Shown one piece after another: positions 9,694 through 62,115 of a stretch of DNA of 64,000 bases. Position 1 is the stretch's first letter. Each line of letters opens with the position of its first letter. The notes beneath the pieces were generated by a model. That model saw only the letters and a list, made by a program, of their open reading frames with translations, had not been told where the DNA came from and searched no databases. Source of the stretch: Mustelus asterias. Taxonomy: Eukaryota. The position numbers were made by a program, and so were the translations under genes. The stretch spans positions 32,984,001 through 33,048,000 of the forward strand of contig NC_135811.1 of assembly GCF_964213995.1 (NCBI RefSeq), read 5' to 3'.

Positions 9694-9803
9694 ATTGATC
9701 ATGGGAGTGAAGAACAGCTCTATTAATGATACTTGCATGTGTTGAGAAGGGGCAGGAATACAGGTTTAGTGACACTGTAATATTACTGTGGCTTTCCATA
9801 TTG

Positions 9804-9903
9804 GTAAGAGTTTTAACAACACTAGGTTAAAGTCTTTAACCTGGTGTTGTTAAAACTCTTACTGTGTTCACCCCAGTCCAACGCCGGCATCTCCACATCA
9901 TGA
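9804..9903 (+). mobile_element. Penelope-like mini hairpin element (no ribozyme retained)
   Basis: ~29-bp inverted arms plus family tail ccccagtccaacgccggcatctccacatcatga; TSD tttccatattg at 9793-9803 and 9904-9914. Confidence 0.8.
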
Positions 9904-9954
9904 TTTCCATATTGATACAGATATTGGGTGTAACTATGTGACAATAAAGACCCA

Positions 9955-17149: not shown

Positions 17150-17898
17150 CTCATCTTTCCCCTTTCCTGACATCATTTTGAATTTAGCTCCGAGTCAAAT
17201 GGATCAACAAAGCAACAAGCAAATTGAAGTAGCTAATCACATTAAAGCATTCTCACAGACAGCAAAGCAGGAAACAAAAATCACTGAAGGCCTTCATTTT
17301 TAATTTAAATTGTACAGATTGCAAAATAAATGATTGAGATATGCAGGTGCATTGTTAGAGGTTATGTCAATAAATGTTTTAGAACTAATTCTGAAATTAA
17401 CTAGATTTTTAAAATCATTTCATAAATAAAATGTTTCACAGTAATTATGCAATTGGTCCATCATTAAAAACCCAGTTACAGCCCATTCACCAAGGGGTAA
17501 ATTTTTCAAGGGTTTTTACAGCAAGTAGCATTGAGACTAAGATGGAGAGCACAAAGTGGAAGCTCTTATCTGCTCAGTGATTTCTAATTGTTTGTAGTCT
17601 GGAGAAACTTCAAAAATGCACCTGATGAGAGAAGCAGAGAATCCCTGAAGCAACGTCTGGATTTCCATGTTGAACTGCACATGTGTAGGCACTAGGAGTT
17701 GCTGTCAGTTTCAGAAAAGTAATGATAGCAAATGCTGAGATTTTTGCTATCATTACTACAGCATAATACACGTCAATGTGTTTATATCCTCATGTAAATA
17801 TAGGGTAGTATATACATCAGTATGATTTATGGTCCATTGACACTTATTATTTTTGTACGTTAGAGGGAAAGGGAGTTGAAAATGGATGTCAGTCTAAG

Positions 17899-19375
17899 TC
17901 ATAGAGATTTACAGCATGGAAACAGGCCCTTTGGCCCAATTTGTCCATGCCGCCCAGTTTTTAATCACTAAGCTAGTCCCAATTGCCCACGTTTGGCCCA
18001 TATTCCTCTATATCCATCTTACCAAAGTAACTGTCTAAATGCTTGATGTGGATATGCAGGCGTTGGACTGGGGCGGGCACAGTAAGAGGTCTCACAACAC
18101 CAGGTTAAAGGCCAACGGGTTTATTTGGTATCAAGAGCTTTCGGAGCACTACTCCTTCAGGAGCTCACCTGATGAAGGTGAGAAGGTGAGTAGGTGAGTA
18201 GATGAGAAGGTGATGAAGTGGAACTCACCTGATGAAGCAGCAACGCTCCAAAAGCTCGTGATACCAAATAAACCTGTTGGACTTTAACTAAATGCTTTTT
18301 TAAAAAGACAAAATTGTACCCCGCCTCTACTCCTGCCTCTGGCAGCTCGTTCCAGACGCTCACCACCCTGTGTGTGAAAAAATTGCCCCTCTGGACCCTT
18401 TTGTATCTCTCCCCTCTCATTATGCCCTCTAGTTTTAGACTCCCCTGCCTTTGGGAAAAGGTGTTGATTATCTACCTTATCTACGCCCCTCATTATTTTA
18501 TAGACCTCTATAAGATCACCCTGAAGTCTCCTACACTCCAGGGAAAAAGGGCTAATCTATCCAGCCTCTCCTTATAACTCAAATCATCAAGTCCCGATAG
18601 CATTCTAATAATTCTTTTCTGCACTCTTTTTAGTTTAATAATATCCTTTCTATAATAGGGTGACCAGAACTATACATAGTATTCCAAGTGTGGCCTTACT
18701 AATGGCTTGTACAACTTCAACAAGCCATCCCAACTCCTGTATTCAATGTTCTGACCAATGAAATCATGCATGCCGAATGCCTTCTTCACCACCCTGTCCA
18801 CCTGTGATTCAACTTTTAAGGAGCTATGAACCTGTACTCCTAGATCTGTTTGTTCTATAACTCGCCCCAATGCCCTACCATTATCTGAGTAGGTCCTGCC
18901 CTGATTTGATCTACCAAAATGCATCACCTCACATTTATCTGAATTAAACTCCACCTGCCATTCATTGGCCCACTGGCCCAATTGATCAAGATCCCATTGC
19001 AATCCTAGATAACCTTCTTCACTGTCCACTATGCCACCAATCTTGGAATCATCTGCAAACTTACTAACCATGCCTCCTAAATTCTCATCCAAATCAGTAT
19101 ATAAATAACAATTAACAGTGGACCCAGCAATTATCCCTGAGGCACACCGCTGGTCACAGGTCTCCAGTTTGAAAATCAACCCTCTATAATCACCCTCTGT
19201 CTTCTGTCGTCAAGCCAATTTTGTATCCAATTGGCTACCTCACCCTGGATCCTGTGAAATTTAACCTTATGCAACAACCTACCATGCGGTACCTTGTCAA
19301 AGACCTTGCTAAAGTCCATGTAGATAACATCGACTACACTTCCCTCATCTAGCTTCTTGGTTACCCCTTCAAAAG
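17899..19375 (-). mobile_element. 5'-truncated CR1 LINE, same subfamily as 52099-54420
   Basis: ORFs 19176..19397 and 18670..19179 with DFSKVFDKVPH and FADD; tail at 17899; interrupted by the hairpin element 18045-18287. Confidence 0.92.
18045..18287 (-). mobile_element. Penelope-like hairpin element with two damaged hammerhead motifs
   Basis: Family tail inverted at the left end; inverted arms; TSD ctaaatgctt at 18035-18044 and 18288-18297. Confidence 0.8.
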
Positions 19376-19412
19376 ACTCAAGTCTGGAGTCTGCCACAGT
19401 GACACCTCATAC

Positions 19413-20200
19413 CTGAGTCATCTTGGCAAGGTCAAGCGATGGCCTTTGATCTTCTTCTGGTCTGCGACGCTTCATCCCAACCTTCTGATCATTGTGGACA
19501 CACGGCTGTGATCGGCATCGGAGTAGTCGACTGGTCTGCTGCACACTCTCTGGATTTGCAGCAGACTTACCCATGGTAGATGGTGCGCTGAGCTCCAGCA
19601 CAGATATCTGTTCATGAGATACAGAGAGAGGTCGCAGGAGATTGATCCCGGACGCAGCCCCTGAACTGGAATCAGGGCGCAGATCATCTTGAAACCTTCC
19701 AAAAGTGGGTGAGGTCCAAAAGCCCTGCCTCTGGGGGCACACAGACCTGGTGCTGGTAGCCAAGGGTTCATATGAGAAAGAAAAGACATTGGATCTTGAA
19801 GGCAGACTAAAACTTGAGCTCCTCTGCATTGTGGATACCCCATTTGAACAATGCTGCACACTGCTCCCACTGTGGCAGCGTCTTTTATCCACTGGAGTCC
19901 ACACCTTTGACCCGCTAGGTTTCCACGGCGACCGACAGCTTGAAAGTTCATCTGAAAATGACAGCGACCTACACTGCCGTTTGCTAGGAGGTGCTGATGG
20001 ATGGCCATTTCGATCAGTGAGGCTGAGGTCTTTGATTAAACTGGTTACAGCAGATGTTGGGTTTGAATCACTTGGCCAAGCGGTATTCTCTTGACACTCC
20101 TCCGAGCTGGTCAAACAAGTCCAAGGTGAATCCAGATTATTGGTGGCTTGCTCAAGGTCGATTTGACACTTTCTGGTGATGTCTCTCCACCGATCCCCCT
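19413..20200 (-). CDS. FAM53B: FAM53B large internal coding exon (FAM53 domain)
   Basis: ORF 19407..20114 has AVTSLIKDLS, PSAPPSKRQCRSLSFSDE, GSKVWTPVDKRRC, MQRSSSFSLPSR, RSQPCV, KRRRPEE and RPSLDLAKM. The frame extends to a phase-1 acceptor (T-rich tract, aaag|AG GGG GAT CGG TGG = GDRWRD) and ends at CAG|gtatga. 78+55+788 = 921 nt, in frame. Confidence 0.95.
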
Positions 20201-20555
20201 CTTTTCAGTTCAAATAAAACAAAACAAAAAAGGATTTTATTAGTCTGAACCCTGATGCCACAACATGGATTAGTTCTTAAGGAAACATTTGAAAACAAAT
20301 TGATCTTAACTTAAATCTGCCTTTTAAGCATAAATATTTATTCCAGTCCTTTAAAAGAGGTTTTCTAAAAAAATAAATAAATAGGAAACGAGAAACAGAG
20401 GAGATGATCGTTTAGCTCTGGACTATGTTCTGCCGCCATGCAGAGAGATCATGACTGATCAGCAATCCAGCTTCACATGCTCATCTTTGCTTCATATTCT
20501 GCAATACCAGGGCTTAATAAAAATCTGATCAATTTCAGTTTTAAATGTAATAAGT

Positions 20556-21020
20556 GATCTGGCGCCGACTGACCTGGCGCCGACTGACCTGGCGCCGACT
20601 GACCTGGCGCTAACTGACCTGGCGCTGACTGATCTGGCGCTAATTGATCTGGCGCTGACTGACCTGGCGCTGACTGACCTGGCGCTGACTGACCTGGCGC
20701 TGACTGACCTGGCGCTGACTGATCTGGCGCTGATTGATCTGGCGCTAATTGATCTGGCGCTGACTGACCTGGCGCCGACTGACCTGGCGCCGACTGACCT
20801 GGCGCCGACTGACCTGGCGCCGACTGACCTGGCGCTGACTGACCTGGCGCTGACTGATCTGGCGCTAATTGATCTGGCGCTGACTGACCTGGCGCTGACT
20901 GACCTGGCGCTGACTGACCTGGCGCTGACTGACCTGGCGCTAATTGATCTGGCGCTAATTGATCTGGCGCTGACTGACCTGGCGCTGACTGACCTGGCGC
21001 TGACTGATCTGGCGCTGAAA
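20556..21020. repeat. 15-bp minisatellite, 31 units (GAYCTGGCGCYRAYT)
   Basis: Exact 15-nt period from 20556 to 21006; 20 gacc-type and 11 gatc-type units. Confidence 0.98.
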
Positions 21021-21115
21021 GTGATTTCTGAAAGAGAATTCCAAACTTCTATCATCCTTGCCGTGTAATAGCATTTCTTAATTTTACTCCACAAAGGGCT
21101 GGCTCAAACATTTGA

Positions 21116-21241
21116 GGCTGGAATTTTACCGTCCCGTCCACCACGGTAATCAGAGCAGGCGAGGGGTGAACAATGGGAAGCTCCGTTGACCTCAGGCAGG
21201 ATTTTACAGTTTCAGGACAAGCGAGGATGTAAAATCCCGCC
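21116..21241. mobile_element. Short MITE
   Basis: ggctggaattttac / gtaaaatcccgcc. Confidence 0.65.
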
Positions 21242-27237: not shown

Positions 27238-27766
27238 CCCGGCAGCAGCAAGCAATTGCGTCATGAGACCTGACTGAAAAAGGTTTTGTGCTGTTTTCTT
27301 CAACTTAATATTTTGTTAAAACAGCACCGCCAGGAGAGGAACACCTTCAGAATTATTAAAACAATACTTTTTTTTAAAAAAGGTCGCTAAAAACACCACT
27401 GAGCAGTAAATAGAATTTCCTTTTCTTGATTAAAAAAGTAATTTCCTGGCTGCACATCTCATATATTTCATTCCTCCCGGAAGGATTTTATTTGATTAAA
27501 ATGATCACAGTGGGTGCACCATAGTGATCGCTAATTGCAGTACCACCTGCTACAACACAAGTGCCTCCACACCTGCATCAGTGACACAAAGGGAATATAG
27601 CCCAAAACAAGCATTGCTGTAAAATCAATTTACAACATGAACGTCGAGCAAATAGGTTTTTGCTTGCATAAGAATAAATTAAACTTTAACCCAGTTTCTT
27701 TATCTTCCCTCACAATTATCTTCCCTTCCCGACAGATATTTGTCTTTGGCTGGCCTTACCCAAATG

Positions 27767-27860
27767 CAATAAGAGTTTTAACAACACTAGGTTTTACCTG
27801 GTGTTGTTAAAACTCTTACTGTGTTTACCCAAGTCCAACGCCGGCACCTCCACATCATGA
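27767..27860 (+). mobile_element. Penelope-like mini hairpin element
   Basis: Inverted arms plus family tail; TSD cttacccaaatg at 27755-27766 and 27861-27872. Confidence 0.8.
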
Positions 27861-28331
27861 CTTACCCAAATGGCCATTATTCATGTCTGGAGTCTACTTG
27901 AACATGGAACACATCAAAACTGAGCAACAACCCTTAGCTCACAGAGACATGCACACTTCTAGCAGAGGTCAGTGAATAGCAAATCAGGACTGGAAAGCCC
28001 AGCTCATTTTCTTCCACCTGGAACAGCCTCTGGGGACAAAAGTAGGACTCCTGTCACTACTCTACTGCTATCAGCTAACTCCACACAAACTAAGGAACCA
28101 AATCTTTCCTCTGTGGCTTAGCTATTTACTGGCTCAACACATAGAGATATGGGCGCATGAGGTGACAGGTTCTTCGGAGTAAAAAACCTATTTATCTCAC
28201 GGTTACAGCTATAGTTGACCAAATTCTATTTTTGCAATTGTTACAGTACACAATTTGTAAATGTTATTAGGTTTCACCAATAATTATGAACAATGAATTT
28301 TAGTCCCTCACTTGTTCTGATACTTAGATAC

Positions 28332-29378
28332 GGGGCCCTATTTTACCATTGCGTCGCGCCCGTTTGGTGAAGTCGGCTGTGAGGCCATTAACATGAACCG
28401 CGCCCGCGTTTGCGCAGATGGCCACTTTGCTGAGACCCGGGAATGGCCGCGATCCGATTCACGCCCGAAACGGGCGCAACAGCGATTTAAATGTATTTGC
28501 ATGCATTTAAATTGAATTAATGAACTGCCCGCCCAACTTTATCGGCATTTCCCTCTTTACCACCGCGTTCGCTGATCCGGAATCGTGCCGAAATGGACAT
28601 GCTGAATAAAAGTCTGAATTGGGCGCTCCAGCTGCTGAAGAGGCGTGTTCAGCACTTCCAACAGGCTCGTTGACGCAGATCAGTGGTTGTGTGTGTGGGG
28701 GCGGGGGGGGGGGGGGGGGGGGCGGGGGGGGGGTCAGATCATTCTCTGGCTGGGGGGGTGGGGGGAGGGGAGTAAGGTCAGATCATTCTCTGGTTAGGGG
28801 GGGGGGGGGGAGGGCCGATCATTGTCTGGTGGTGGGGGGGGGGGGGGGGGGGGGCCGATCTTTCTCTGGTTGGGGGAGTGGGGGGGGAAGTGAGGCCAGA
28901 TCATTCTTTGGAGGGAGGGGGGAAGAGGAGGAGGCGGGTAAGATGGATCTCTGAGGGGTGGCGGTGGGGGGCAGAGGGGTCTGCTGCCACTCTGCGGGCG
29001 ATCGGTGGGGGGGGGGGGCGAAGGGGGGGCAGGGGGTCTCGATCGGTCTGAGTAGCAGTGGGGGATGGATAAGGCGGACAGTGATATTTGTGGGGGGCAT
29101 CGCTCCCGCTTTTCGCTCCCGGGCCGCTTTCTCCGCTTTTTGCGGCCCGGGAGCGATGTGACATGGGCGCGCTTTTTCAAATTTTTTCTAACTGCGCATG
29201 CGCAGTTCAGAGCTCCGATCGTTTTGGGCATACTATGCCCCGTCCACAGCACGATTCAGACTCGCGATTTTTTTTTCATGCTGAGTGCGTATGGGGGCGC
29301 CTGAAGGCAGATTTCCAAGTCGGATCTGAATTGCGCCCAGATTCAGCACTTAGAATGAAAATGGTGAAATCAGGTCCA
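28332..29378. mobile_element. ~1-kb GC/CpG-rich non-autonomous DNA transposon (MITE-like) with internal G-run repeats
   Basis: Imperfect TIR ggggccctattttaccatt / aatggtgaaatcaggtcca (14 of 19 match); sharp GC boundaries. Confidence 0.6.
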
Positions 29379-32815: not shown

Positions 32816-34492
32816 ACGTACCCCAGTTACCCTGACTTTCTCAGTAAAATTAACAAAATGTCGGTTTGCCCCTCCGGACATTTGAGTAGACTAATGGAAC
32901 AAGGAACAGGAAAATAAAGAGTGGGGAAACTAAATTTGAAAGTGAATAAAAAAAACATATTTCATTAGATGTGAAGTGGGAGAAAAGCCCAAGACATCTT
33001 TTTAAAATTTTACTCTAACCTGGTGAAAAGTGTGTGAAAAAAATTGCATAATTTCAGGCAAAAATGATCTGAAAGTATTCATGTCAAGAAATATTTTGTT
33101 ACTGTATATTGCAAAATGTCCATCTTATATAAGCATATTGAAACATTTTAAGCTTTCATATTTATCTAGTCTCTTTGCACAATATTTGGCAACAAAATCA
33201 GAAATGATTATACCAAGAATTGACCAATGGAACAACATAGGGAGTTGGGCAATTTTTGGAACGCAACTGAACAGGGTCAAGAGTTATTGTTAACTATTCA
33301 AAAACATTTGTTACCTAAATAAAGAGGCAGCAAAAAAAGGCTGAACATTGCCAATGAAGAGTTGCACATATGGATCAGCCATGTATCTTGCGGCTGGAGA
33401 AATGCATTAGCAAGTGTACAAGTCTTCAGGCCAAAGCACTCAGAAATCCACAAAGGTGGAGTTGCTGTTTGCCCAGTGTAGAGTGCATACCCAATTCATC
33501 CACATTAAAAGAATCTAGCTTCGCTGTAGCCATGGCTATTGAGCATGCACAGTGTGATTTATAATTTACCAGCACTGAGCATTGGCAAACTTACTGTTGA
33601 TTATCTTTTTTTTTTACTCCATTCTGAGCCAATGCTCAGAGTGGACCAGGCAAACCCATTCCTTGCTTGCTCCAAAAACCAAATTCAAATTGAATCCAAT
33701 TCACGGTCCTGAGAATAGAGACAAACAAGCTGACAAGATACGGCATTATACCGCATCTTGGGTTTGATCTGACGCTTGACTTTAGCCAAAACGTTGTTGA
33801 TGATCCTGTTAGGATTGGCCTACCTATTAGTGCATTGTCTTGCAGAGTCACTTGGGCAAGGGTGGGATGAATTCCAGTGACAGGTCCACCCTTTCATGTT
33901 GGCTTGTCAGTTATCAATAGTGCATTGCAATACTCCAAATATCAGAGTTGACTTCAATCAGCAGGTATGTCCTCAAGCAAAGCCCATTTCCCTCTCCACT
34001 GAGTGTTAGGTGTTAGCCAGTAAACAACTGCCAATATACTTGCCTTAGAGAAGGGGCACTAGATTGATTCGCAGTTATCCCATGAGGAGATCATTGATCC
34101 ACTGGAGCAAGCTGAGAGGGGTGATTGAAAAGCAGCAGTGCTGGTAAGAGATTAATTGGATTAATTGAATTGTTTATTTATTTAATTAGTCAGCTAGTGT
34201 GTGTATTTTTTTGGCCTTTACTTTAACAGCAGTTTTTCAAGTTTAAAGTGAAAACTAGAAGTGGGCAGCAAAGGAGTCTGGGAAGGGTTTTTATTTTAAC
34301 TTTAAAAGTCAGTTACCTGGGTGGTTCCCCCTCAGTAGTAGTTTGTTTTTTCTCTTGGGCCCCTAGCCCTATAAATTGGTGCAGAGGAGATACCCGATCC
34401 TCTACACTGGTAGAGGATCCCACCCTTCCATCCTCCTCTAACCTAATTATAAGTGTGGGGAAGTTTTTTGTTTTCTTTTTTTCTTGCTGGTA

Positions 34493-35422
34493 ATGGCTTC
34501 AGGGATGGCAGTTCAGGCAGTATGCTGCATCTCCTGTGGGATGTATGTGGTGAGGAAATCCAGTAGTGTTTCAGGAGATTTTAGTTGTAAGAAGTGCATT
34601 AGATTGCAGCTTCTGGAGGAGCGTGTAAAGGAGCTGGAGGGGGAGGTAGAGGAACTCCGCATAATTCGGGAGGCGGAGGTGGAAGTTGATAGGAGTTATA
34701 GAGAAATAGTAACTCCTAGAAATGAGGCTTGGGTCAATGCCAGGAGGAGGGGTAAGAAGCAATCGGGAAGACAATCCCCTGGGGCGGTTCCCCTCCATAA
34801 TAGGTTTTCGGTGCTGGAGGCTACAGTTGAGGAGGAATCAACTGAGCATAGAGAGCAGATCTCTGGGGGTGAGCCGAGTGAGAAAGCTCAGGTGGTTAGG
34901 GGCTGTAAAAGACTGGGCCTTGTGATTGGGGACTCCACAATTAAGGGGACAGATAGGAGGGTCGGAACTAAAGGTAGGGACTCAGGGTTGGTGTGTTGCC
35001 TACCAGGGGCTGGGGTCCGGGATGTGTCTGACAGGGTATTCAGGACTCTTAGGGGGGAGGGAGATAAACCACAAGTTATTGTACATGTGGGGACACACGA
35101 CATAGGGAGGATAGGGGAAGGGGATATTAGGCAGGGATTTATGGAGTTGGGGTGGAAACTAAAGGCCAAGACTGACAGAGTGGTTATCTCTGGACTCTTG
35201 CCTGTACCACGGGATAGTTTAGAGAGGAATAGGGAGAGGGAAGGTTTGAATTCATGGCTGAGGGGATGGTGCAGGAGGGAGGGGTTCAGGTACTTAAGCA
35301 ATTGGGGCTCGTACTGGGGAAGGTGTGACCTCTATGAGAAGGATGGTCTACACCTTAATCAGAAGGGGACCAATATCCTGGGGGGTAAATTTGCTAAGGC
35401 CATGCAGGGAGGTTTAAACTGA
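34493..35422 (+). CDS. CR1 ORF1: zinc finger, coiled coil and SGNH esterase-like domain
   Basis: CISC...CKKC, heptad LQLLEERVKELEGEVEELRII, SGNH blocks VIGDS, PGA, VHVGTHD and DGLH. First ATG at 34493, second in-frame ATG at 34505. Confidence 0.92.
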   Translation: MASGMAVQAVCCISCGMYVVRKSSSVSGDFSCKKCIRLQLLEERVKELEGEVEELRIIREAEVEVDRSYREIVTPRNEAWVNARRRGKKQSGRQSPGAVPLHNRFSVLEATVEEESTEHREQISGGEPSEKAQVVRGCKRLGLVIGDSTIKGTDRRVGTKGRDSGLVCCLPGAGVRDVSDRVFRTLRGEGDKPQVIVHVGTHDIGRIGEGDIRQGFMELGWKLKAKTDRVVISGLLPVPRDSLERNREREGLNSWLRGWCRREGFRYLSNWGSYWGRCDLYEKDGLHLNQKGTNILGGKFAKAMQGGLN

Positions 35423-35511
35423 TTCGGGGGGGGGGAGGGATCCTGAGTAGTGGGGCTGAAAGTGAGGGATGCATAGATGGGGACTGCAATGCACGGCATT
35501 GCAGAGGTGGG

Positions 35512-38292
35512 GTGGAGCAGGGTTTGAAATGTGTATACTTCAATGCCAGGAGTATTCGCAATAAAGTGGGTGAACTTGCAGCGTGGATCAGTACCTGGGA
35601 CTTCGATGTTGTGGCTATTTCAGAGACATGGATAGAGCAGGGGCAGGAATGGATGCTGCAGGTCCCGGGGTTCAAATGTTTTAGTCGAAGTAGGGAAGGA
35701 GGTAGAAGAGGGGGAGGGGTAGCATTATTGGTCAGAGATTGTATCACAGTGTCAGAGAGGAGGTTTGATGAGGACTTATCTGTTGAGGTAGTATGGGCGG
35801 AGATTAGAAATAGGAGAGGAGAGGTCACCCTGTTGGGAGTCTTTTATAGACCTCCTAAAAGTTCTAGAGAGGTTGAGGAAAGGATTGCGGAGTCAATCCT
35901 GCTTAGGAGTGAAAGTAATAGGGCAATTGTTATGGGGGATTTTAACTTGACTAATATTGACTGGAATTGTTATAGCTCTAGCTCGTTAGAGGGGTCAGTT
36001 TTTGTTCAAAGCGTGCAGGAAGGTTTTTTGACTCAGTATGTAGACAGGCCAACTAGAGGTGAGGCTATATTGGATCTGGTGCTGGGAAATGAGCCAGACC
36101 AGGTGCTAGACTTGGAAGTTGGTGTGCATTTTGGTGATAGTGACCACAATTCGGTTACGTTCACCTTAGTGATGGAAAGGGATAGGCATGAACCTCGGGC
36201 CAGTGGTTTTAGCTGGGGGAAGGGTAATTATGAGGCTATTAGGAGAGAATTAGGAAACATAGGTTGGACTAGGAGATTACAGGGACTGGGAACGTCCGAC
36301 ATGTGGAGTTTTTTCAAGGAGCAGCTACTGCGAGTCTGTGATAGGTATGTCCCTGTCAGGCAAGGAGGAATTGGTAGGGCTAGGGAACCGTGGTGCACCA
36401 AAAAAGTTTCTTTGTTGGTTAAAAAGAAAAAGGAGGCTTATGTTCGGATGAGACGTGAGCACTCGGGTAGTGCACTAGAAAGCTTTAGATTGGCTAAGAG
36501 GGAGTTGAAGAGCGAGCTTAGAAGGGCTAAAAGGGGACATGAGAAGACTTTGGCGGATAGGGTTAAAGAGAATCCTAAGGCGTTCTATAGGTATGTCAAG
36601 AACAGAAGGTTGGTTAGGGCAAGTTTAGGGCCAGTTATAGATGGCAGAGGGAAGTTATGTGTGGAACCGGAGGAGATTGGTGAAGCATTGAACCAATATT
36701 TCTCTTCGGTGTTCACGCAAGGGGACATGAATATAGCTGAGGAGGACACTGGGTTGCAAGGGAGTAGAATAGACAGTATTACAGTTGATAAGGAGGATGT
36801 GCAGGATATTCTGGAGGGTCTGAAAATAGATAAATCCCCTGGTCCGGATGGGATTTATCCAAGGATTCTCTGGGAGGCAAGAGAAGTGATTGCAGAGCCT
36901 CTGGCTCTGATCTTCAGGTCGTCGTTGGCCTCTGGTATAGTACCAGAAGATTGGAGGTTAGCGAATGTTGTCCCATTGTTTAAGAAGGGGAACAGAGACT
37001 TCCCCGGGAATTATAGACCGGTGAGTCTCACTTCTGTTGTCGGCAAGATGTTGGAAAAAATTATAAGGGATAGGATTTATAGTTATTTGGAGAGTAATGA
37101 ATTGATAGGTGATAGTCAGCATGGTTTTGTGGCAGGTAGGTCGTGCCTTACTAACCTTATTGAGTTTTTTGAGAAAGTGACCAAGGAGGTGGATGGGGGC
37201 AAGGCAGTGGACGTGGTATATATGGATTTTAGTAAGGCGTTTGATAAGGTTCACCATGGTAGGCTTCTGCAGAAAATGCAGATGTATGGGATTGGGGGTG
37301 ATCTAGGAAATTGGATCAGGAATTGGCTAGCGGATAGGAAACAGAGGGTGGTGGTTGATAGTAAATATTCATCATGGAGTGCGGTTACAAGTGGTGTACC
37401 TCAGGGATCTGTTTTGGGGCCACTGCTGTTTGTAATATTTATTAATGATCTGGATGAGGGTATAGTTGGGTGGATTAGCAAATTTGCTGATGACACCAAA
37501 GTCGGTGGTGTGGTAGACAGTGAGGAAGGGTGTCGTAGTTTGCAGGAAGACTTAGACAGGTTGCAAAGTTGGGCCGAGAGGTGGCGGATGGAGTTTAATG
37601 CGGAGAAGTGTGAGGTAATTCACTTTGGTAGGAATAACAGATGTGTTGAGTATAGGGCTAACGGGAGGACTTTGAATAGTGTGGAGGAGCAGAGGGATCT
37701 AGGTGTATGTGTGCATAGATCCCTGAAAGTTGGGAATCAAGTAGATAAGGTTGTTAAGAAGGCATATGGTGTCTTGGCGTTTATTGGTAGGGGGATTGAA
37801 TTTAGGAGTCGTAGCGTTATGTTGCAACTGTACACAACTCTGGTGCGGCCGCACTTGGAGTACTGTGTGCAGTTCTGGTCCCCACATTACAGGAAGGATG
37901 TGGAGGCTTTGGAGAGGGTGCAGAGGAGGTTTACCAGGATGTTGCCTGGTATGGAGGGGAGATCCTATGAGGAGAGGCTGAGGGATTTGGGATTGTTTTC
38001 GCTGGAAAGGCGGCGGCTAAGAGGGGATCTTATTGAAACATATAAGATGATTAGAGGTTTAGATAGGGTGGATAGTGATAGCCTTTTTCCTCTGATGGAG
38101 AAATCCAGCACGAGGGGGCATGGCTTTAAATTGAGGGGGGGTAGTTATAGAACCGATGTCAGGGGTAGGTTCTTTACCCAGAGGGTGGTGAGGGATTGGA
38201 ATGCCCTGCCAGCATCAGTAGTAAATGCGCCTAGTTTGGGGGCGTTTAAGAGATCCGTAGATAGGTTCATGGACGAAAAGAAATTGGTTTAG
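35512..38292 (+). CDS. CR1 ORF2: APE endonuclease plus reverse transcriptase
   Basis: EN motifs YFNARS, SETW, YRPP, GDFN, LDL, SDH; RT motifs YRPVSLTS, QHGF, DFSKAFD, GVPQGSVLGPLLF, FADD. The frame is open from 35398; 35512 is a GTG, so the true start is uncertain. Confidence 0.95.
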   Translation: MEQGLKCVYFNARSIRNKVGELAAWISTWDFDVVAISETWIEQGQEWMLQVPGFKCFSRSREGGRRGGGVALLVRDCITVSERRFDEDLSVEVVWAEIRNRRGEVTLLGVFYRPPKSSREVEERIAESILLRSESNRAIVMGDFNLTNIDWNCYSSSSLEGSVFVQSVQEGFLTQYVDRPTRGEAILDLVLGNEPDQVLDLEVGVHFGDSDHNSVTFTLVMERDRHEPRASGFSWGKGNYEAIRRELGNIGWTRRLQGLGTSDMWSFFKEQLLRVCDRYVPVRQGGIGRAREPWCTKKVSLLVKKKKEAYVRMRREHSGSALESFRLAKRELKSELRRAKRGHEKTLADRVKENPKAFYRYVKNRRLVRASLGPVIDGRGKLCVEPEEIGEALNQYFSSVFTQGDMNIAEEDTGLQGSRIDSITVDKEDVQDILEGLKIDKSPGPDGIYPRILWEAREVIAEPLALIFRSSLASGIVPEDWRLANVVPLFKKGNRDFPGNYRPVSLTSVVGKMLEKIIRDRIYSYLESNELIGDSQHGFVAGRSCLTNLIEFFEKVTKEVDGGKAVDVVYMDFSKAFDKVHHGRLLQKMQMYGIGGDLGNWIRNWLADRKQRVVVDSKYSSWSAVTSGVPQGSVLGPLLFVIFINDLDEGIVGWISKFADDTKVGGVVDSEEGCRSLQEDLDRLQSWAERWRMEFNAEKCEVIHFGRNNRCVEYRANGRTLNSVEEQRDLGVCVHRSLKVGNQVDKVVKKAYGVLAFIGRGIEFRSRSVMLQLYTTLVRPHLEYCVQFWSPHYRKDVEALERVQRRFTRMLPGMEGRSYEERLRDLGLFSLERRRLRGDLIETYKMIRGLDRVDSDSLFPLMEKSSTRGHGFKLRGGSYRTDVRGRFFTQRVVRDWNALPASVVNAPSLGAFKRSVDRFMDEKKLV

Positions 38293-43110: not shown

Positions 43111-43262
43111 GCCCCTTCATCAGGTGAGTCACCTGATGAAGGGGCAGCGCTCCGAAAGCTAGTGGCGTGTGCTACCAAATAAACCTGTTGGACTTTAACC
43201 TGGTGTTGTGAAACTTCTTACTGTGTTTACCCCAGTCCAACGCCGGTGTCTCCACATAATGA
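43111..43262 (+). mobile_element. Penelope-like hairpin element with an intact hammerhead motif
   Basis: 17-bp perfect inverted arms centred on 43128, then hammerhead, aataaa and family tail. No long TSD seen. Confidence 0.8.
43128..43166 (+). ncRNA. Minimal type I hammerhead ribozyme motif; predicted cleavage after 43161 (CUA)
   Basis: GUCAC-CUGAUGA-A-GGGGC-AGC-GCUCC-GAAAG-CUA-GUGGC: core boxes intact, stems I and II pair, stem III reduced to palindromic AGCU (dimer-type). Confidence 0.78.
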
Positions 43263-44367: not shown

Positions 44368-45315
44368 AGGCGATTCTCCCATCCCAATTTTTTAGTGCAG
44401 CGGCCAGGAGAATCTCACAGTGGGTTTCGCACATGCATTCCCACCACGATAGTATCTCCCAGTGCCGGATTTCCGGCGGCGTGAGCTTTGCACCAAAAAT
44501 CAGCAAGGAGGCACGGAAATGATTTGAATGCCAATTTAAATATAATTACTGGGCCCGGGACTGAAGCCTCCGGGGCCTGTAAACATCTCCCCCCCCCCGC
44601 GACTGACGTGAAGGGGGAGGCAATTGGAGCCCCCCCAGAGGGTCAGGCGGTGGGGTGGGGTGTCCCTAGGCAGTGGCACCATGACAGTGCCAGCCTGTGT
44701 TCCCTGGCACTGGCAAAGGGGCAAAGTGCCAATGCCCAGAGGGCACCTTGGCACTCCCCATCGGGCAATCAGTGGGAGTGGGGGGGTCCCACTGCCACTC
44801 TGCAGTTGGGTGGCCAGCGATCGGGGTGAGCTGGGGAAAATCGGGACTGCGGGGGGCGTAGGCACTGCGGAGGGGGCGAGAGGGACAGGGGCTGGAGATC
44901 GGGGCAGGACGAGGAGGGTTGGGTGTCAGGACTGGACCCAGGAATGCTTAAGGGGGCGGTGATCGGGCCGTTGGCGGGGGGGGGGGGGGGGGGGGGGGGG
45001 GGGGAGAGTTGCACAGCTGGCGTTGTGGGTATCACAGAGCTGGCGAGCGATCGAGCTGGCCAGCAATCAGGAAGCCTGCAATGTGGGGCCACTGCACACG
45101 CGCCGATCTCCACACTGACAGATCGGTACATGTGCAGTGGCCTGCTCAGCGCTATGCTGCCAGCCTCCCGGGCAGAAATAAGCCCTGTCCCCTGAATTAT
45201 AATGATATAGATGCTGGTGCTCTCTGCAGTGCGCAGAGTGTGGGAGATTCCTGTCTGAACTCCCACTGAAAAAAACCAACGTAAATTACTCCAGTTTTCC
45301 CGCAAATTCGACACA
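44368..45315. mobile_element. GC-rich MITE-like element, one end apparently lost
   Basis: Begins ggcgattctccc; same architecture as 28332-29378 (tttaaat motif, central G-runs, gatcgg repeats); interrupts a decayed CR1. Confidence 0.45.
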
Positions 45316-48256: not shown

Positions 48257-48933
48257 CTGAAAACAATTTAGGAAATGTCGTTAAGCCAGAATTTCTACTA
48301 ACCATCAGCTTAAAAAGAGGTTTTTTTTAAATATAGAAAAAGCACTTACAGGTAGGTGACTAAAAAAATGCATTAAAAAAATTACAATTATATCATGAGA
48401 TCAACCAATCACAACTGAGGAGAAAAGACAGGTAATTGACAAAATTACTTACGTAACTTTGACATTTTACAGCCAGTAAAATTACCCAATCACAACAAAA
48501 CAATTGTATCATGTGACTGCATGATATTATGACACCACTAACTGACTTGATTTTGAATATCACCAATGTGAGAACTTTTAAATAAGCAACTTATTTTTAA
48601 AAGGAGTGCGAAGCCACAAAAAATAAATCTTTCAAAAGATAAGTCTTTATTTGGCACACTGTATTCTGTTTAGAACATATGCTTGATTTTCAGTAACAGA
48701 TGGTTATCACTTTTTAAGCACAGTTTTGAATCTTAGGTCCAGAAGCTGAATCTTTTTGTGTGTTCTTCATCTAAAGCAGTGCATACGCAACAAGCTAACA
48801 CTTAATCATCCAGCTATTAGAATGAACATACATTTGTGCGACATTACCAAATTATCTTTAAAGCGGCAAATATTGCAACAGACAAGACCCAAACTGTTTG
48901 CAGATTAAAAAACAACTGAGACCTTCATTTACA

Positions 48934-49145
48934 GTAAGAAGTCTCACAACACCAGGTTAAAGTCAAACAGGTTTATTTGGAATCATGAGTTTTTGGAACA
49001 TTGCTCCTTCATCAGGTGACTCACCTGATGAAGGGGCAGTGCTCGGAAAGCTCGCGATTCCAAATAAACCTGTTGGACTTTAACCTGGTGTTGTGAGACT
49101 TCTTACTGTGCTCACCCCAATCCAATGCTAGCATTTCCACATCAT
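48934..49145 (+). mobile_element. Penelope-like hairpin element, longest inverted arms (~89 bp)
   Basis: Arms centred on 49020; TSD gaccttcatttaca at 48920-48933 and 49146-49159. Confidence 0.85.
49021..49057 (+). ncRNA. Minimal hammerhead ribozyme motif, core intact, stems weakened
   Basis: UCAC-CUGAUGA-A-GGGGC-AGU-GCUCG-GAAAG-CUC-GCGA. Confidence 0.65.
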
Positions 49146-49405
49146 GACCTTCATTTACAAACAGGCAGAACTATGAAGCCTAATAATCAGCATGCATATG
49201 CAAACAATACCATACAAGCATACAAAAAGAATCAGTAACAGGACAATTATCCTCTACCATCTAATAGAGTTTAGGGATGTTAAATGGCATGCACTTGTTA
49301 TAGTGGGTGGAATTTAACTTTTCTGTTGTGTGCTACTGGAACCTACATTGACCCTTATGCAGTGCTTAGATTTCCGAGGTGTTTTGCTTGGTTAACACAA
49401 TTGTT

Positions 49406-49738: not shown

Positions 49739-52098
49739 TCTTGTTGCAGGAATTCATGCACTGTTTCAAGCACTCTGATTGATATGCTTTAGGAATTAAA
49801 ACCACATTTCTCTGCTCCAAAGATCAGAAATCAAGGAACTGGAACAGCTGATCCAAAGCAGACCAGACTCCATGGCCTGGACTTTCACTGAGCTGGGACA
49901 ATGTGAGAATGTTAAAAACAGTTGACATGACTCCAGCGTTCCAATCTCCATTCCCATTTCAAGCAGCTTCTACCAGTATGGGGTAAGGATGTGAGGCAGC
50001 CTGTCCAACACAGCACTGCTGTTGTTGGCGCTATTGTAGCAGTGGACAGTTTAAATCCTGCCCCTGCACCCCACCACCAGTAAAATTGATCTAGTAAACA
50101 TTGGTTCCACTTTTGGACAGAAGCCCAAAGTAAACATTTAGTATAACAAAAGCAGATTGCTCACAAACTTGACCTCAATAGTCACTGACAGTATAAAAGG
50201 AGAAACTCTCCTATCTGAGATTTTCCCTAATTTATCACATGCTGCTGAACCCAAATTTATGAAGTGATGTCTATCTATTTAAACTCCTGTTAACAAGAGA
50301 CACAATTCCAAGTGGTTGCACTGTCTATAAGAAGGCTCCACATGAGAGCCGGTGCCTGAAGCATTTTCCCTTGTGTCCTGCATAGTTCTGTTTTGAACCG
50401 ACACAGGATAATGGGGTGAAGTCGCTTTTTCTGTGTGGTCAGAAAGCCAGAGTGTGAAATTCTATCATAATCTCTAAATGTCAGGGTCTACTGCTCTGAC
50501 TTTGCAGTGAATTAAAAGGAAATTTAATTCTGGATAATGTGACTTGAAGACTTCGAAATTACTGTCACTAATATTAGCAGACAAATGGTTAACATTTGTG
50601 TCACAGTCGATTCTCTGCAACTTTAACTGAAGTTTAATTTATTTATTTAAACTAAATAGATAAGTGCTTTGGTTAAATTCCTGGCAAAAGAGTGTCAAAG
50701 ACCAGTGTTAAGGACTTCTTTGTCAATGCCTCCAAGTGTAGTTTCTAGGCATAAGTAAAATTAGTGATGAAAAATTCCATTTAATCCAGTCAGCTTGCTT
50801 TGTCAACAAGGTCCAGATACTGTCCAGGAACTGGGGGAAGGTTTCGCACTTCAACATTCAGGCAGAACAGTTTGGCAAAACTGAAGTCCTAATTGCAAAC
50901 CCGGACACAAGCGGCTGACAATTTAATGAACGGAAAATCATGAGCAACTTGTGCCCAAGTCTGTGATGAATGTTTCCACCTTGCCAAGCTTCCGTGCCAA
51001 GGCACTGAAGAGGAAAATCTGCCCTTGTTGTGACCGTTGAATAGATTTTCCGTCATGTGCATGAATGCAGCCGAAATATTGCACCTGTCCGACTAAGGCA
51101 TGGCCAATCTAGTCAAATCTTCCAGAGTTGATAAGCAGAGTTACTCATTGATTTTGAGTTTCAGTCATTCAATCCACCCAGTCTGTGAGCTCACACACTT
51201 AGAGGTGGCAAATCTGGCACTGCTGCAACTAGTTAAAGTAACACTATAACCTTTTAAGGAGAAAAGTACTTTTGCGTAGCAAAAGGAAGTTCAGAATTTT
51301 GGAGCGTCCGTGCAGAGGATAAATCAGTTTATTTCAGGACCTTTTGTACAATCTACAATCAAAATGTGAACTTACCTAACTGATCTCTCGACAGATGCCG
51401 CCTGACCTGCTGAGTTTCCCCAATATTTTGTATTTGTATTTTTCTTTCACATTCCCAGTGTCAATTATTTTTGCATCAAAGGGCTGTTCAGATTGACAAA
51501 TGAAGCAGTTTAGATATATACAACGGAAGAGAAGGAAAAGGAGGCTTGCCCTCCACTGTACCCTTGCACAAGTTTAAGATTCTTGTTTGTGACTGGAGTA
51601 TGCAACTTCAGAGTTAACATGAAATTCAATGGTATTCTTCTCCTTCTTGAGCCCCCTGCCTGAAGGCAGGTCTATCCCACAATGCTGCAATCTCCACCAC
51701 AGATATGGTGAAGCAGGTCCCAATTCCATCCCAGCCAGAAAATGGATCACATCGAAAGCTGTTGGCACCAGTCTGATCCACACCGGATGTCCAGCCAGTC
51801 GGGCCAAGTGGTCTGAGATGCTGTGGCAACATACACCTTTAATTGAATGTTCTCATCAGGAACTATGGATAGGTGGTGGTAGAGGTTCCAATTTCTTTCC
51901 TGGTCATGGTTGACCAGGAATCTCTCCCACCACTGCCATTGGTAAACATTAGAAGGATTCACAAGTTGACACTCAACTTGTTTGGCCATGCTATGAACAC
52001 TCCTTCCTTGGCCATCAAGTCCTTGAGTGGGACTTGAGTATGAAAATTCTGTGTGTTACCTGCTGCACCAAAGACCTACTCAATTATGTTATGGTCAT

Positions 52099-60289: not shown

Positions 60290-62115
60290 TCAGCTGCCTT
60301 TGCCATATTTTCCCCTTCCTCCAGCCCACAGGGCTAAATTTCCTCTGAACTTCCCCCTGCCCAAGCACTGAACTAACATCTTTCTCTAGGTTCTCTCCCA
60401 TCTCCTTGGTGCCTTGTCTGAGCTCACTTTGTCTACGAGACTTGTCTTCTGTTCCCTCAATCCTGTCCCCTAATTGATCATCCAATTTCCTTTCTTGGTC
60501 CGCATGTTAGTTTCTCTTTGAACATTGTCTCTTTCTTTTAAATCTGTCATCATCAACCTTTCTCCTCAAAAAAAAAATTCCTTGACCTCCATCGTCCATC
60601 TCAAACCTCCCCGGGCATGTTACTGCCTCCCAAATCTGTGTCCATCATTCCCTGGGCTGCATGCTCGAGTCCCGCCAATCTAATTCCCAACCATCACAAT
60701 ATTAAAACAGCTCTTATCAAAGAACAGTGCAGCACAGGAACAGGCCCTTCAGCCCTCCAAGCCTGTGCCGATCACATTGTCCTATCTGGACCAATCACCT
60801 GTATCAAAGTCACAAATGACACCCTCTGTCACTGGAACAAAGATAAATTTCTCCTCCTCGTCCTGTCTGCAGCCTTGGTCGCAGTTCACCACACCATCCT
60901 CCTCCAATGCCTCTCTGCGGTCATCCTGCTGGTGCCATTTTTATCAATCTATTCCTACGCAGAATCTTATTTGTAATGGCTTTCTGCTCTCACACCATTA
61001 CTTCTGGACACTCCCTATCCTGGAGCCTTTCCCATTTCTCATCTACAACTCCTCATCAGTGACTTCATCCAAAAACACATTAGATTTCATGCATGTGCTG
61101 ATAACACCCAGCTCTAACTCCTCTACTGATGTTAAATTATCTGATGTCTTACCCAGCACCCAGTGCTGAATGAGCAGATATTTTCTCCAATTAAATATTT
61201 GCAAGATTGAAGCCATTGTTTTTGGTCTCTGCTCCAATTCCTAACTAAGAAGTTTAACAACACCAGGTTAAAGTCCAACAGGTTTATTTGGTTGTGGCTT
61301 TTGCTACCAAATAAACCTGTTGGACTTTAACCTGGTGTTGTTAAACTTCTTACTGTGTTTACCCCAGTCCAACGCCGGCATCTCCACATCAATTCCTAGC
61401 TACCATCTCTCTGTAACAGACTGAGACCTTTTAGCCTGTCAATGCCAATTGGTATCAAACTTGATCCCAAGAGGAGTTTTCAACTATATATTTCCACCTT
61501 TGCGATATTGTCTGAATTCATTCATTTCAGCTTATCCGCTGTAGAAACCCTCATTCATGTCTTAGTTAGTTATCGCTCCACTTAACTATTCCAATGCAGT
61601 CCTGGCTAGTCTCCCACATTTTACCTTCCTTAAACTCAAGGTCAAGCAAACTCTGTCGCCTGTGTCTTAACTCACACCAAGTCCCGTTCACCTACCATCG
61701 CAGAGTTTGCTGACCTACAGTGGCTCCCAGACAAGCAATTGATTGTAAAATTCCCATCCTGGTTTTCAAATTCTTCCATGGTCTCACCCCTCCCTATCTC
61801 TGTAATCTTCCCTAGACCCACAATCCTCTCTCAGATACCTGCACTCTTCTAACTCTGGCCCCCTGTGCATTCCAAATTATGATCGCTCCACCATTGGTAG
61901 CCTAGGCCTCTGGAATATCCTCACTATTAGTCTCCACCTCACTTTCCCCCTGAAGACACTCTTTAAATCCTCTCTCTTTGACCTGACTTTTGGTCATCTG
62001 ATCAAATATCTCCTTATTTGGCTTGGTATCATATTTTGTTTGAAAATGCTTCTGAGAAGCATCTGGAGACATTTTATTCGATTAAAGGCGTGGTATAAAT
62101 ATGAGTTATTGTTGT
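60290..62115 (+). mobile_element. Decayed L2-clade LINE
   Basis: Pyrimidine-rich; remnants FLQLNI.K.EAIVFG and ADL.WLP; tail tataaatatgagttattgttgt; hosts the hairpin element at 61246. Confidence 0.7.
61246..61390 (+). mobile_element. Penelope-like hairpin element whose sense arm starts at the predicted ribozyme cut site
   Basis: ~45-bp inverted arms plus tail; TSD caattcctaacta / caattcctagcta (61235-61247, 61390-61402). Confidence 0.82.

Follow-up and report, generated by a model that had tools for sequence, protein, structure and literature searches.

The window, a stretch of 64,000 nucleotides of DNA from Mustelus asterias, is vertebrate in content. An exon-sized open reading frame (ORF) on the minus strand at 19410-20204 matched the Pfam family FAM53 (E 1e-73); the window is probably part of, or close to, a FAM53 gene. 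We found it to be rich in LINE ORFs and SINE copies. A nearly intact LINE, which we take to be of the CR1 type, occupies 34442-38292 on the plus strand, with a first ORF of 326 aa and an endonuclease-reverse transcriptase ORF of 964 aa; the ORFs of the window that match reverse transcriptase are presumably CR1-type as well. A tandem array with a 15-nt unit, open in several frames, was located within a CR1-like 3' fragment (20465-21124), and a G-rich array of units of about 40 nt, with a GATCATTCTCTGG core and long G runs, at 28664-29020; a piece near 44944-45003 is related to the latter. In addition, 51951-52025 (minus strand) gave a borderline match to the Rfam CPEB3 (HDV-like) ribozyme, with 35.4 bits against a gathering score of 35, and is located where a CR1-type ORF fragment begins on the other strand.

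When the 64-kb window was searched with permissive BLAST settings, six copies of one element of about 130 nt bearing a putative hammerhead were revealed. Copy 43111 served as the ruler for all element positions (numbers of the form 431xx and 432xx). The copies and their parts were as follows.

61235..61247, plus strand: left target-site duplication of copy 61246, 13 nt, differing from the right copy at 1 position; the final 2 nt (TA) also form the start of the inverted arm.
61246..61292, minus strand: inverted arm of copy 61246, 47 nt, 47/47 identical to 61306-61352, running from the equivalent of 43220 to that of 43174.
61293..61305, plus strand: hairpin loop of copy 61246, one T followed by 12 nt from the predicted cut site on; the T at 61293 is untemplated, a templated U17 variant or part of a substituted TAG microhomology.
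61294..61389, plus strand: sense arm of copy 61246, 5'-truncated and without the ribozyme core.
61353..61389, plus strand: unpaired tail of copy 61246, 37 nt, between the proximal and distal start sites.
61390..61402, plus strand: right target-site duplication of copy 61246, whose first 2 nt (CA) also fit the element end.
43111..43262, plus strand: copy 43111, with an inverted arm of 17 nt (43111-43127), centre G 43128 and a full sense arm (43129-43262); a target duplication was not found.
43129..43165, plus strand: predicted minimal type I hammerhead of copy 43111, by the sequence criteria given in PMC4209133.
48920..49159, plus strand: copy 48934, with a 14-nt target duplication (48920-48933 and 49146-49159), an inverted arm to 49019, centre C 49020 and a sense arm at 49021-49147; it belongs to the subtype without 7 nt after the cut site.
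9793..9914, plus strand: copy 9804, with a target duplication of at least 11 nt, an inverted arm (9804-9832), a 1-nt centre and a sense arm (9834-9903).
27755..27872, plus strand: copy 27770, with a 12-nt target duplication, an inverted arm (27767-27793) and a sense arm (27792-27860); its 23-nt arm cores are identical, arm for arm, to those of copy 9804.
18035..18297, minus strand: copy 18046, inserted in a CR1-type 3' end with a 10-nt target duplication; inverted arm 18225-18288, 65-nt centre 18160-18224, sense arm 18046-18159.

Within each of the six copies the order is inverted arm, sense arm and tail, the inverted arm lying head to head 5' of the sense arm and the sense arm ending at 43257-43262; head-to-tail tandem units were found in none of them. 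Target duplications of 10-14 nt flank five of the six, copy 43111 being the one without. The sequence duplicated around copy 18046 is present once in two paralogous CR1 ends of the window, which represent empty sites, and therefore the copies are true insertions. The duplications are 67% AT compared to 56% for the window, a weak bias based on 60 nt, and microhomology at the outer junctions amounts to 0-3 nt, with 2-3 nt at the left junction in two of the five duplicated copies. Two subtypes of the element were distinguished by the presence or absence of 7 nt directly after the cut site. Read from the sequence, no copy contains an ORF, and the frame opened by an ATG in the ribozyme core stops within 10 codons. 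A candidate seventh copy, CACCTGATGA at 17619, was rejected. A pattern scan for further copies gave 0 in genome contigs and 0 in viral contigs, and the single locus that it gave in a metagenome contig, in coding DNA of bacterial appearance, was dismissed as a chance match. A MITE-like DNA transposon, or an assembly artefact, would also show inverted repeats and a high copy number, but the asymmetric arms of variable length, the one-sided tail, the duplications of 10-14 nt, the presence of a hammerhead motif and the recurrence of the same junction piles in contigs of four organisms (see below) all go against this. We give such an origin almost no credence, and it is already contradicted by the variable truncation and the variable duplication length.

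The longest arms open with TCAC, CTGATGA, an extra A, a 5-bp stem II, GAAA, GC and T-H, followed by GTG(G/A). In copy 43111 this can be read as a hammerhead with a 4-bp stem I, CUGAUGA, the extra A, the 5-bp stem II, GAAA, a palindromic GC and UA, and the motif is intact at 43133-43161 and at 49025-49053. The predicted cut falls between 43161 and 43162 (GAAAGCTA/GTGG), the standard position for a hammerhead fold. As a loose pattern the motif was not above chance (7 matches against 4.05 expected), and the predicted hammerhead assignment rests on stems I and II, not on this pattern. Rfam returned no hammerhead family, giving sub-threshold microRNA hairpin matches only, and unconstrained folds of monomer and dimer did not yield the hammerhead conformation. 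In the subtype with the 7 extra nt, as at 61294-61307, a small hairpin (GUGGC, a UUUU loop and GCUAC) directly follows the cut site and competes with stem I.

We then mapped where the inverted arms begin. Four of the six start at 43221, 43223, 43224 and 43220, and the remaining two at 43199 and 43145. Four starts within a 5-nt span are well beyond chance (P about 0.005 under a uniform null), and the unpaired tails that they leave measure 41, 39, 38 and 37 nt. The original prediction had placed these starts near one point in four of six copies, with a constant tail of 35-40 nt and a further start at a set distance from the 3' end, and the measurements bear this out with a tail of 37-41 nt. Contigs from four of the 23 sequencing runs listed with matches, representing four organisms, were then aligned to 43128-43262. 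None of the 23 is listed as RNA; X18 may be RNA, by a guess only, and no expression was read from it, while X1 may stem from the same sample as the window. The numbers of aligned contigs were 50,947, 33,909, 59,774 and 4,609, showing that the family is very abundant, with 34,000-60,000 contigs per large run. The results given below come from the 24 of 693 loose-end, 15 of 35 joint, 12 of 31 between-letter and 40 of 84 variant entries listed, which are not simply the largest. Among the 24 listed loose-end entries, ends piled up behind 43222, 43224 and 43225 in 369, 391 and 348 contigs of X1 and in 487, 500 and 555 of X16, behind 43225 in 298 contigs of X6, and behind 43223 and 43224 in 16 and 17 of X18, so that all four runs have piles within 43222-43225; 731 contigs of X16 had loose ends at the distal end, 43257. 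The contig flanks behind the piles at 43222-43225 and 43257 are long and mutually unlike. The same 9-bp stem surrounds the proximal start site in all four copies folded (43200-43247 and equivalents), and copy 48934 keeps it despite three one-sided changes; in these four copies the stem was no more stable than in shuffled sequences (z -0.4 to -1.2).

At the other end of the element, the fold-backs of copies 43111 and 48934 are both centred on a single base at the edge of stem I (GGTGA-G-TCACC and GGTGA-C-TCACC), and copy 18046 also has an arm ending there. The common centre claimed for the first two copies is therefore present as sequence, and three ends of six copies within a 2-nt span are modestly above chance (P about 0.02). 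Because both antisense pieces of copy 18046 end in GGTGAG, the element itself probably includes a C at 43128, and the centre base can come from either arm. The four runs contained 293, 213, 527 and 42 contigs with loose letters before 43129, and among the entries listed these letters agreed at only 0.36-0.48. The pile at 43129 coincides with the query edge, so these counts prove less than the low agreement does, and the latter is what one would expect if the unit naturally ended here on its 5' side, more than if a longer element had a truncation hotspot at this point. The unit probably has its 5' end at the stem I edge. The common centre may be inherited or may be this natural end, and so does not necessarily record independent breakpoints. 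Two candidate splice signals at this position were considered. An antisense splice-donor look-alike (CAG/GTGAG) setting the centre was rejected, as the arms end after GTGA(G) and not at CAG. An intron end of the kind that maps to the helix I 5' edge in D. virilis according to PMC4209133 was not favoured, the loose consensus before 43129 ending in CAC and not AG.

The centres also bear on how the two arms were joined. A single cDNA might snap back and act as its own template up to the proximal site; the end would be fixed there by protein binding or by endonuclease resolution, and the tail would then mark a stop or cut site instead of a second priming site. Such self-priming has been proposed from similar palindromes (PMC3846280), and the tail has been suggested to arise by endonuclease resolution (PMC8557442). 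The 1-nt centres of three of the six copies, together with a fourth that is near-symmetric, are in line with fold-back of one cDNA, and each inverted arm differs from its own sense arm at 0-1 of 23 nt and from the arms of other copies mostly at 2-5. Two RNAs from one source locus would also yield matching arms, however, and copy 61246 has an asymmetric junction (ends 43162 and 43174), as do contig joints such as 43196/43177, 43205/43128 and 43210/43129 among the 12 of 31 between-letter entries listed. Two start sites were, moreover, directly measured in vitro (PMC11167929), and the left-junction microhomology of 2-3 nt in two of the five duplicated copies fits priming. For the inner steps we regard fold-back of one cDNA with a fixed stop as a serious rival and quite possible, if somewhat short of an even chance.

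A related possibility is that some fold-backs were copied whole from a palindromic source, on either strand, so that centres and arm differences were passed on. Besides their identical cores, copies 9804 and 27770 have the same G-to-A change at 43202 between the arms, a substitution carried only by the inverted arms (9804-9832 and 27767-27793), and both are of the same uncommon subtype; coincidence would account for this with a probability of a few per cent, by a rough, uncomputed and post hoc estimate. The G centre of copy 43111 and the C centre of copy 48934 are likewise reverse complements. Nevertheless, the shared change involves two copies only and was spotted post hoc, copies 9804 and 27770 do not have the same centre, the subtypes of 43111 and 48934 differ, and both centres of the latter pair are accounted for by a natural 5' C. 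Inheritance alone would also leave unexplained why the same start point occurs beside new target duplications. We think copying of whole hairpins rather unlikely, although it keeps a real chance; if it occurred, some breakpoints were passed on, and the six copies do not amount to six independent records.

We wanted to establish whether any breakpoint maps to the ribozyme cut site, as had been claimed for copy 61246. Its sense arm aligns from 61294, equivalent to 43162, which is exactly the base 3' of the predicted scissile bond, and a single T (61293) separates the arms. As a position, the predicted start is thus confirmed. This is a hit in one of the six copies, with P of 0.064 for an exact match and 0.18 within 1 nt (5 free ends) for a landmark picked post hoc. 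The single hit is not beyond chance and could easily be due to it. Hence the claim that inversion breakpoints are non-random holds for the fixed offset and, modestly, for the stem I edge, and is not supported for the cut site.

The original prediction went further, proposing that ribozyme-cleaved RNA also serves as template. In such a model the cDNA would run off at the cut site, gain an untemplated base and fold back or join the other arm. The claim of a cleaved template was not supported, as it rests on one copy whose junction, TTTGGT-T-GTGGC, can be parsed in three equally possible ways. The first parse is a cleaved end plus an untemplated base, and with arms 47/47 identical this base is at least as good an account of 61293 as a later mutation; given that identity, a later substitution is not very likely. 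In the second, position 17 of an uncleaved template is U; T accounts for 11-17% of the depth at 43161 in the four runs, part of which may stem from the other subtype, and the T at 61293 may therefore have been templated from uncleaved RNA. The third is a TAG microhomology across the cut with one substitution, TAG being common to the inverted arm and the uncleaved context across the cut site. In addition, the 3' GTGA of the cDNA is complementary to its own TCAC at the cut site (-4.6 kcal/mol in a DNA fold of one arm). This stem I self-complementarity would mimic cleavage, and cut-site junctions are therefore expected without it when the partner arm is of full length.

The contigs did not strengthen the case for cleavage. 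Of 693 loose-end entries 24 were listed, and of 35 joint entries 15; none of those listed is for 43162, which sets no upper bound. The strongest opposite-strand joints, among the 15 listed, run from 43129 to 43168, 43169 and 43175 (7, 10 and 11 contigs in X1), which is where cut-site starts of the shorter subtype would map, but full-length, uncut arms of that subtype clip at the same 43169 and 43175 in ungapped alignment. Since the two map alike, these joints are uninformative, and the 43129-to-43169 joints were dropped as cut-site starts. For the anole element, PMC11167929 found no RNA-seq reads that end at the cut site, and cleavage was not needed in vitro. Overall, we consider cleaved RNA an improbable template.

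It is also conceivable, though we hold it unlikely, that three things are true together: that sharks carry a very high-copy, SINE-like Penelope derivative of about 130 nt whose 5' end is exactly the stem I edge, that hairpins can be passed on whole from palindromic sources in either strand, and that a measurable fraction of junctions lies at the cut site, whether because the RNA was truly cleaved or because the cDNA folded back by stem I. If so, tens of thousands of junctions would form the first in vivo record of the part played by the hammerhead of a Penelope-like element (PLE) in integration.

The 65-nt centre of copy 18046 (18160-18224, minus strand) is a run of 8-9-nt units (TACTCACC, TTCTCACC and TTCATC) built from the element 5' end and flanked by two antisense ends. 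To judge from its sequence, it looks like a stutter from repeated template jumps by a reverse transcriptase; if so, it records such jumps by a telomerase-related enzyme at the 5' end of the RNA.

Collectively, these data make it likely that the elements represent pseudo-LTR ends, short 3' units without coding capacity, of a Penelope/Poseidon-type retroelement that bears a hammerhead, and that they were inserted from distal and proximal starts with head-to-head joining and normally from an uncleaved template. The copies are not autonomous. Insertion would require a reverse transcriptase together with an endonuclease of the GIY-YIG type encoded elsewhere and acting in trans; we infer this enzyme only, because no autonomous partner ORF, and no match to a GIY-YIG family, was found among 105 ORFs within 2.5 kb of a copy, out of 216 ORFs of at least 70 aa. 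To judge by the duplications, the enzyme would nick the two target strands 10-14 nt apart. One nick would prime cDNA at the distal site near ACAU(CAUGA), 43257-43262, and the other side would start at the proximal site near CUGUG, 43220-43225, aided by 0-3 nt of microhomology. The stretch between the sites would be copied once and left as the tail of 37-41 nt. Both copies would run toward the 5' end of the RNA and meet head to head, stopping at random or at the usual 5' limit, the stem I edge at 43128/43129, which would give the shared centre. With a normally uncleaved RNA as template, the cut-site start of copy 61246 would be a chance truncation or a microhomology junction. The positions of the two sites are seen here, while priming at both would follow the in vitro behaviour of the anole enzyme.

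Several observations go against this explanation. Two of the six inverted arms start elsewhere, copy 43111 lacks a target duplication, and the symmetric internal centres of copies 9804 and 27770, with arms closest to their own partners, fit fold-back of one cDNA better than two cDNAs truncated independently. Furthermore, PMC11167929 reports no start-site difference between the strands in vitro, which on its own does not predict one tail per insertion. Joining of two cDNAs and fold-back of a single cDNA may both operate.

What the hammerhead does in Penelope-like elements, and how their inverted copies arise, could both be addressed by counting junctions, for which a short family with tens of thousands of them per genome is well suited; second-strand steps were left unvalidated by the 2024 in vitro study (PMC11167929). 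If a cut-site peak were proven, it would conflict with the anole result and be of importance to specialists; none is shown in the window. We found neither a description of this shark element family nor an analysis of cut-site breakpoints in PLE insertions in the literature covered, with most subscription papers and Repbase lying outside it.

In LINE-1 twin priming, two target-strand primers produce a 5' inversion with junction microhomology, which inverts sequence without duplicating it. In the shark copies, by contrast, the two arms span one and the same stretch of the element, and the position of the second start is constant. The closer parallel is the canonical EN+ Penelope-like insertion, described as a pLTR with an adjacent inverted, 5'-truncated copy and a tail of 30-40 bp at one end (PMC8557442; PMC3846280). 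The copies here agree in their head-to-head inverted copy (six of six), one-sided tail of 37-41 nt (four of six), target duplications (10-14 nt here compared to 8-10 bp in the rotifer; PMC3846280), palindrome at the pLTR 5' edge and minimal type I hammerhead motif in the pLTR; they differ in having no ORF in any copy, a unit of only about 130 nt and a far higher copy number. Palindromes at pLTR 5' ends and inverted junctions have already been reported in the rotifer (PMC3846280). The fixed offset is the published Penelope tail, and the present finding adds only another lineage to a known rule.

The protein of Poseidon from Anolis carolinensis (PAc) cleaves and extends both DNA strands in vitro, with reverse transcription starting at two sites whose interval is the tail; its ribozyme mutants insert normally in vitro, and RNA-seq reads ending at the ribozyme cut site were not found (PMC11167929). 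As in PAc, the shark element has a minimal hammerhead motif upstream of two start sites that bracket the tail, and its targets lean to AT. A supplementary stem-loop of PAc (CUGUG, 27 nt, ACAU) resembles CTGTG, 28 nt and ACAT here, a comparison that depends on the order of the figure text and is tentative (PMC11167929). The PAc ORF starts inside the ribozyme (PMC11167929), whereas the frame from the core ATG is short here. The main text of that paper contains no analysis of inverted junctions that we saw.

The predicted hammerhead shares with the minimal type I hammerheads of metazoan PLEs a 4-bp helix I, an unpaired base before helix II, a G10.1-C11.1 pair, a palindromic 15.2-16.2, the lack of helix III and the occurrence of dual motifs on opposite strands, and differs in a predicted helix II of 5 bp compared to 7-8 bp in the Schistosoma families (PMC4209133). 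Lastly, metazoan non-LTR retrozymes are described as non-coding elements with a type I hammerhead, derived from PLE pLTRs, and were found, like the elements here, in a cartilaginous fish, of which one was sampled (bioRxiv 10.64898/2026.07.22.740005). Retrozymes are head-to-tail tandems bounded by cleavage according to the same preprint, whereas the shark elements lie dispersed as head-to-head hairpins, and the cut site does not appear to define their ends.
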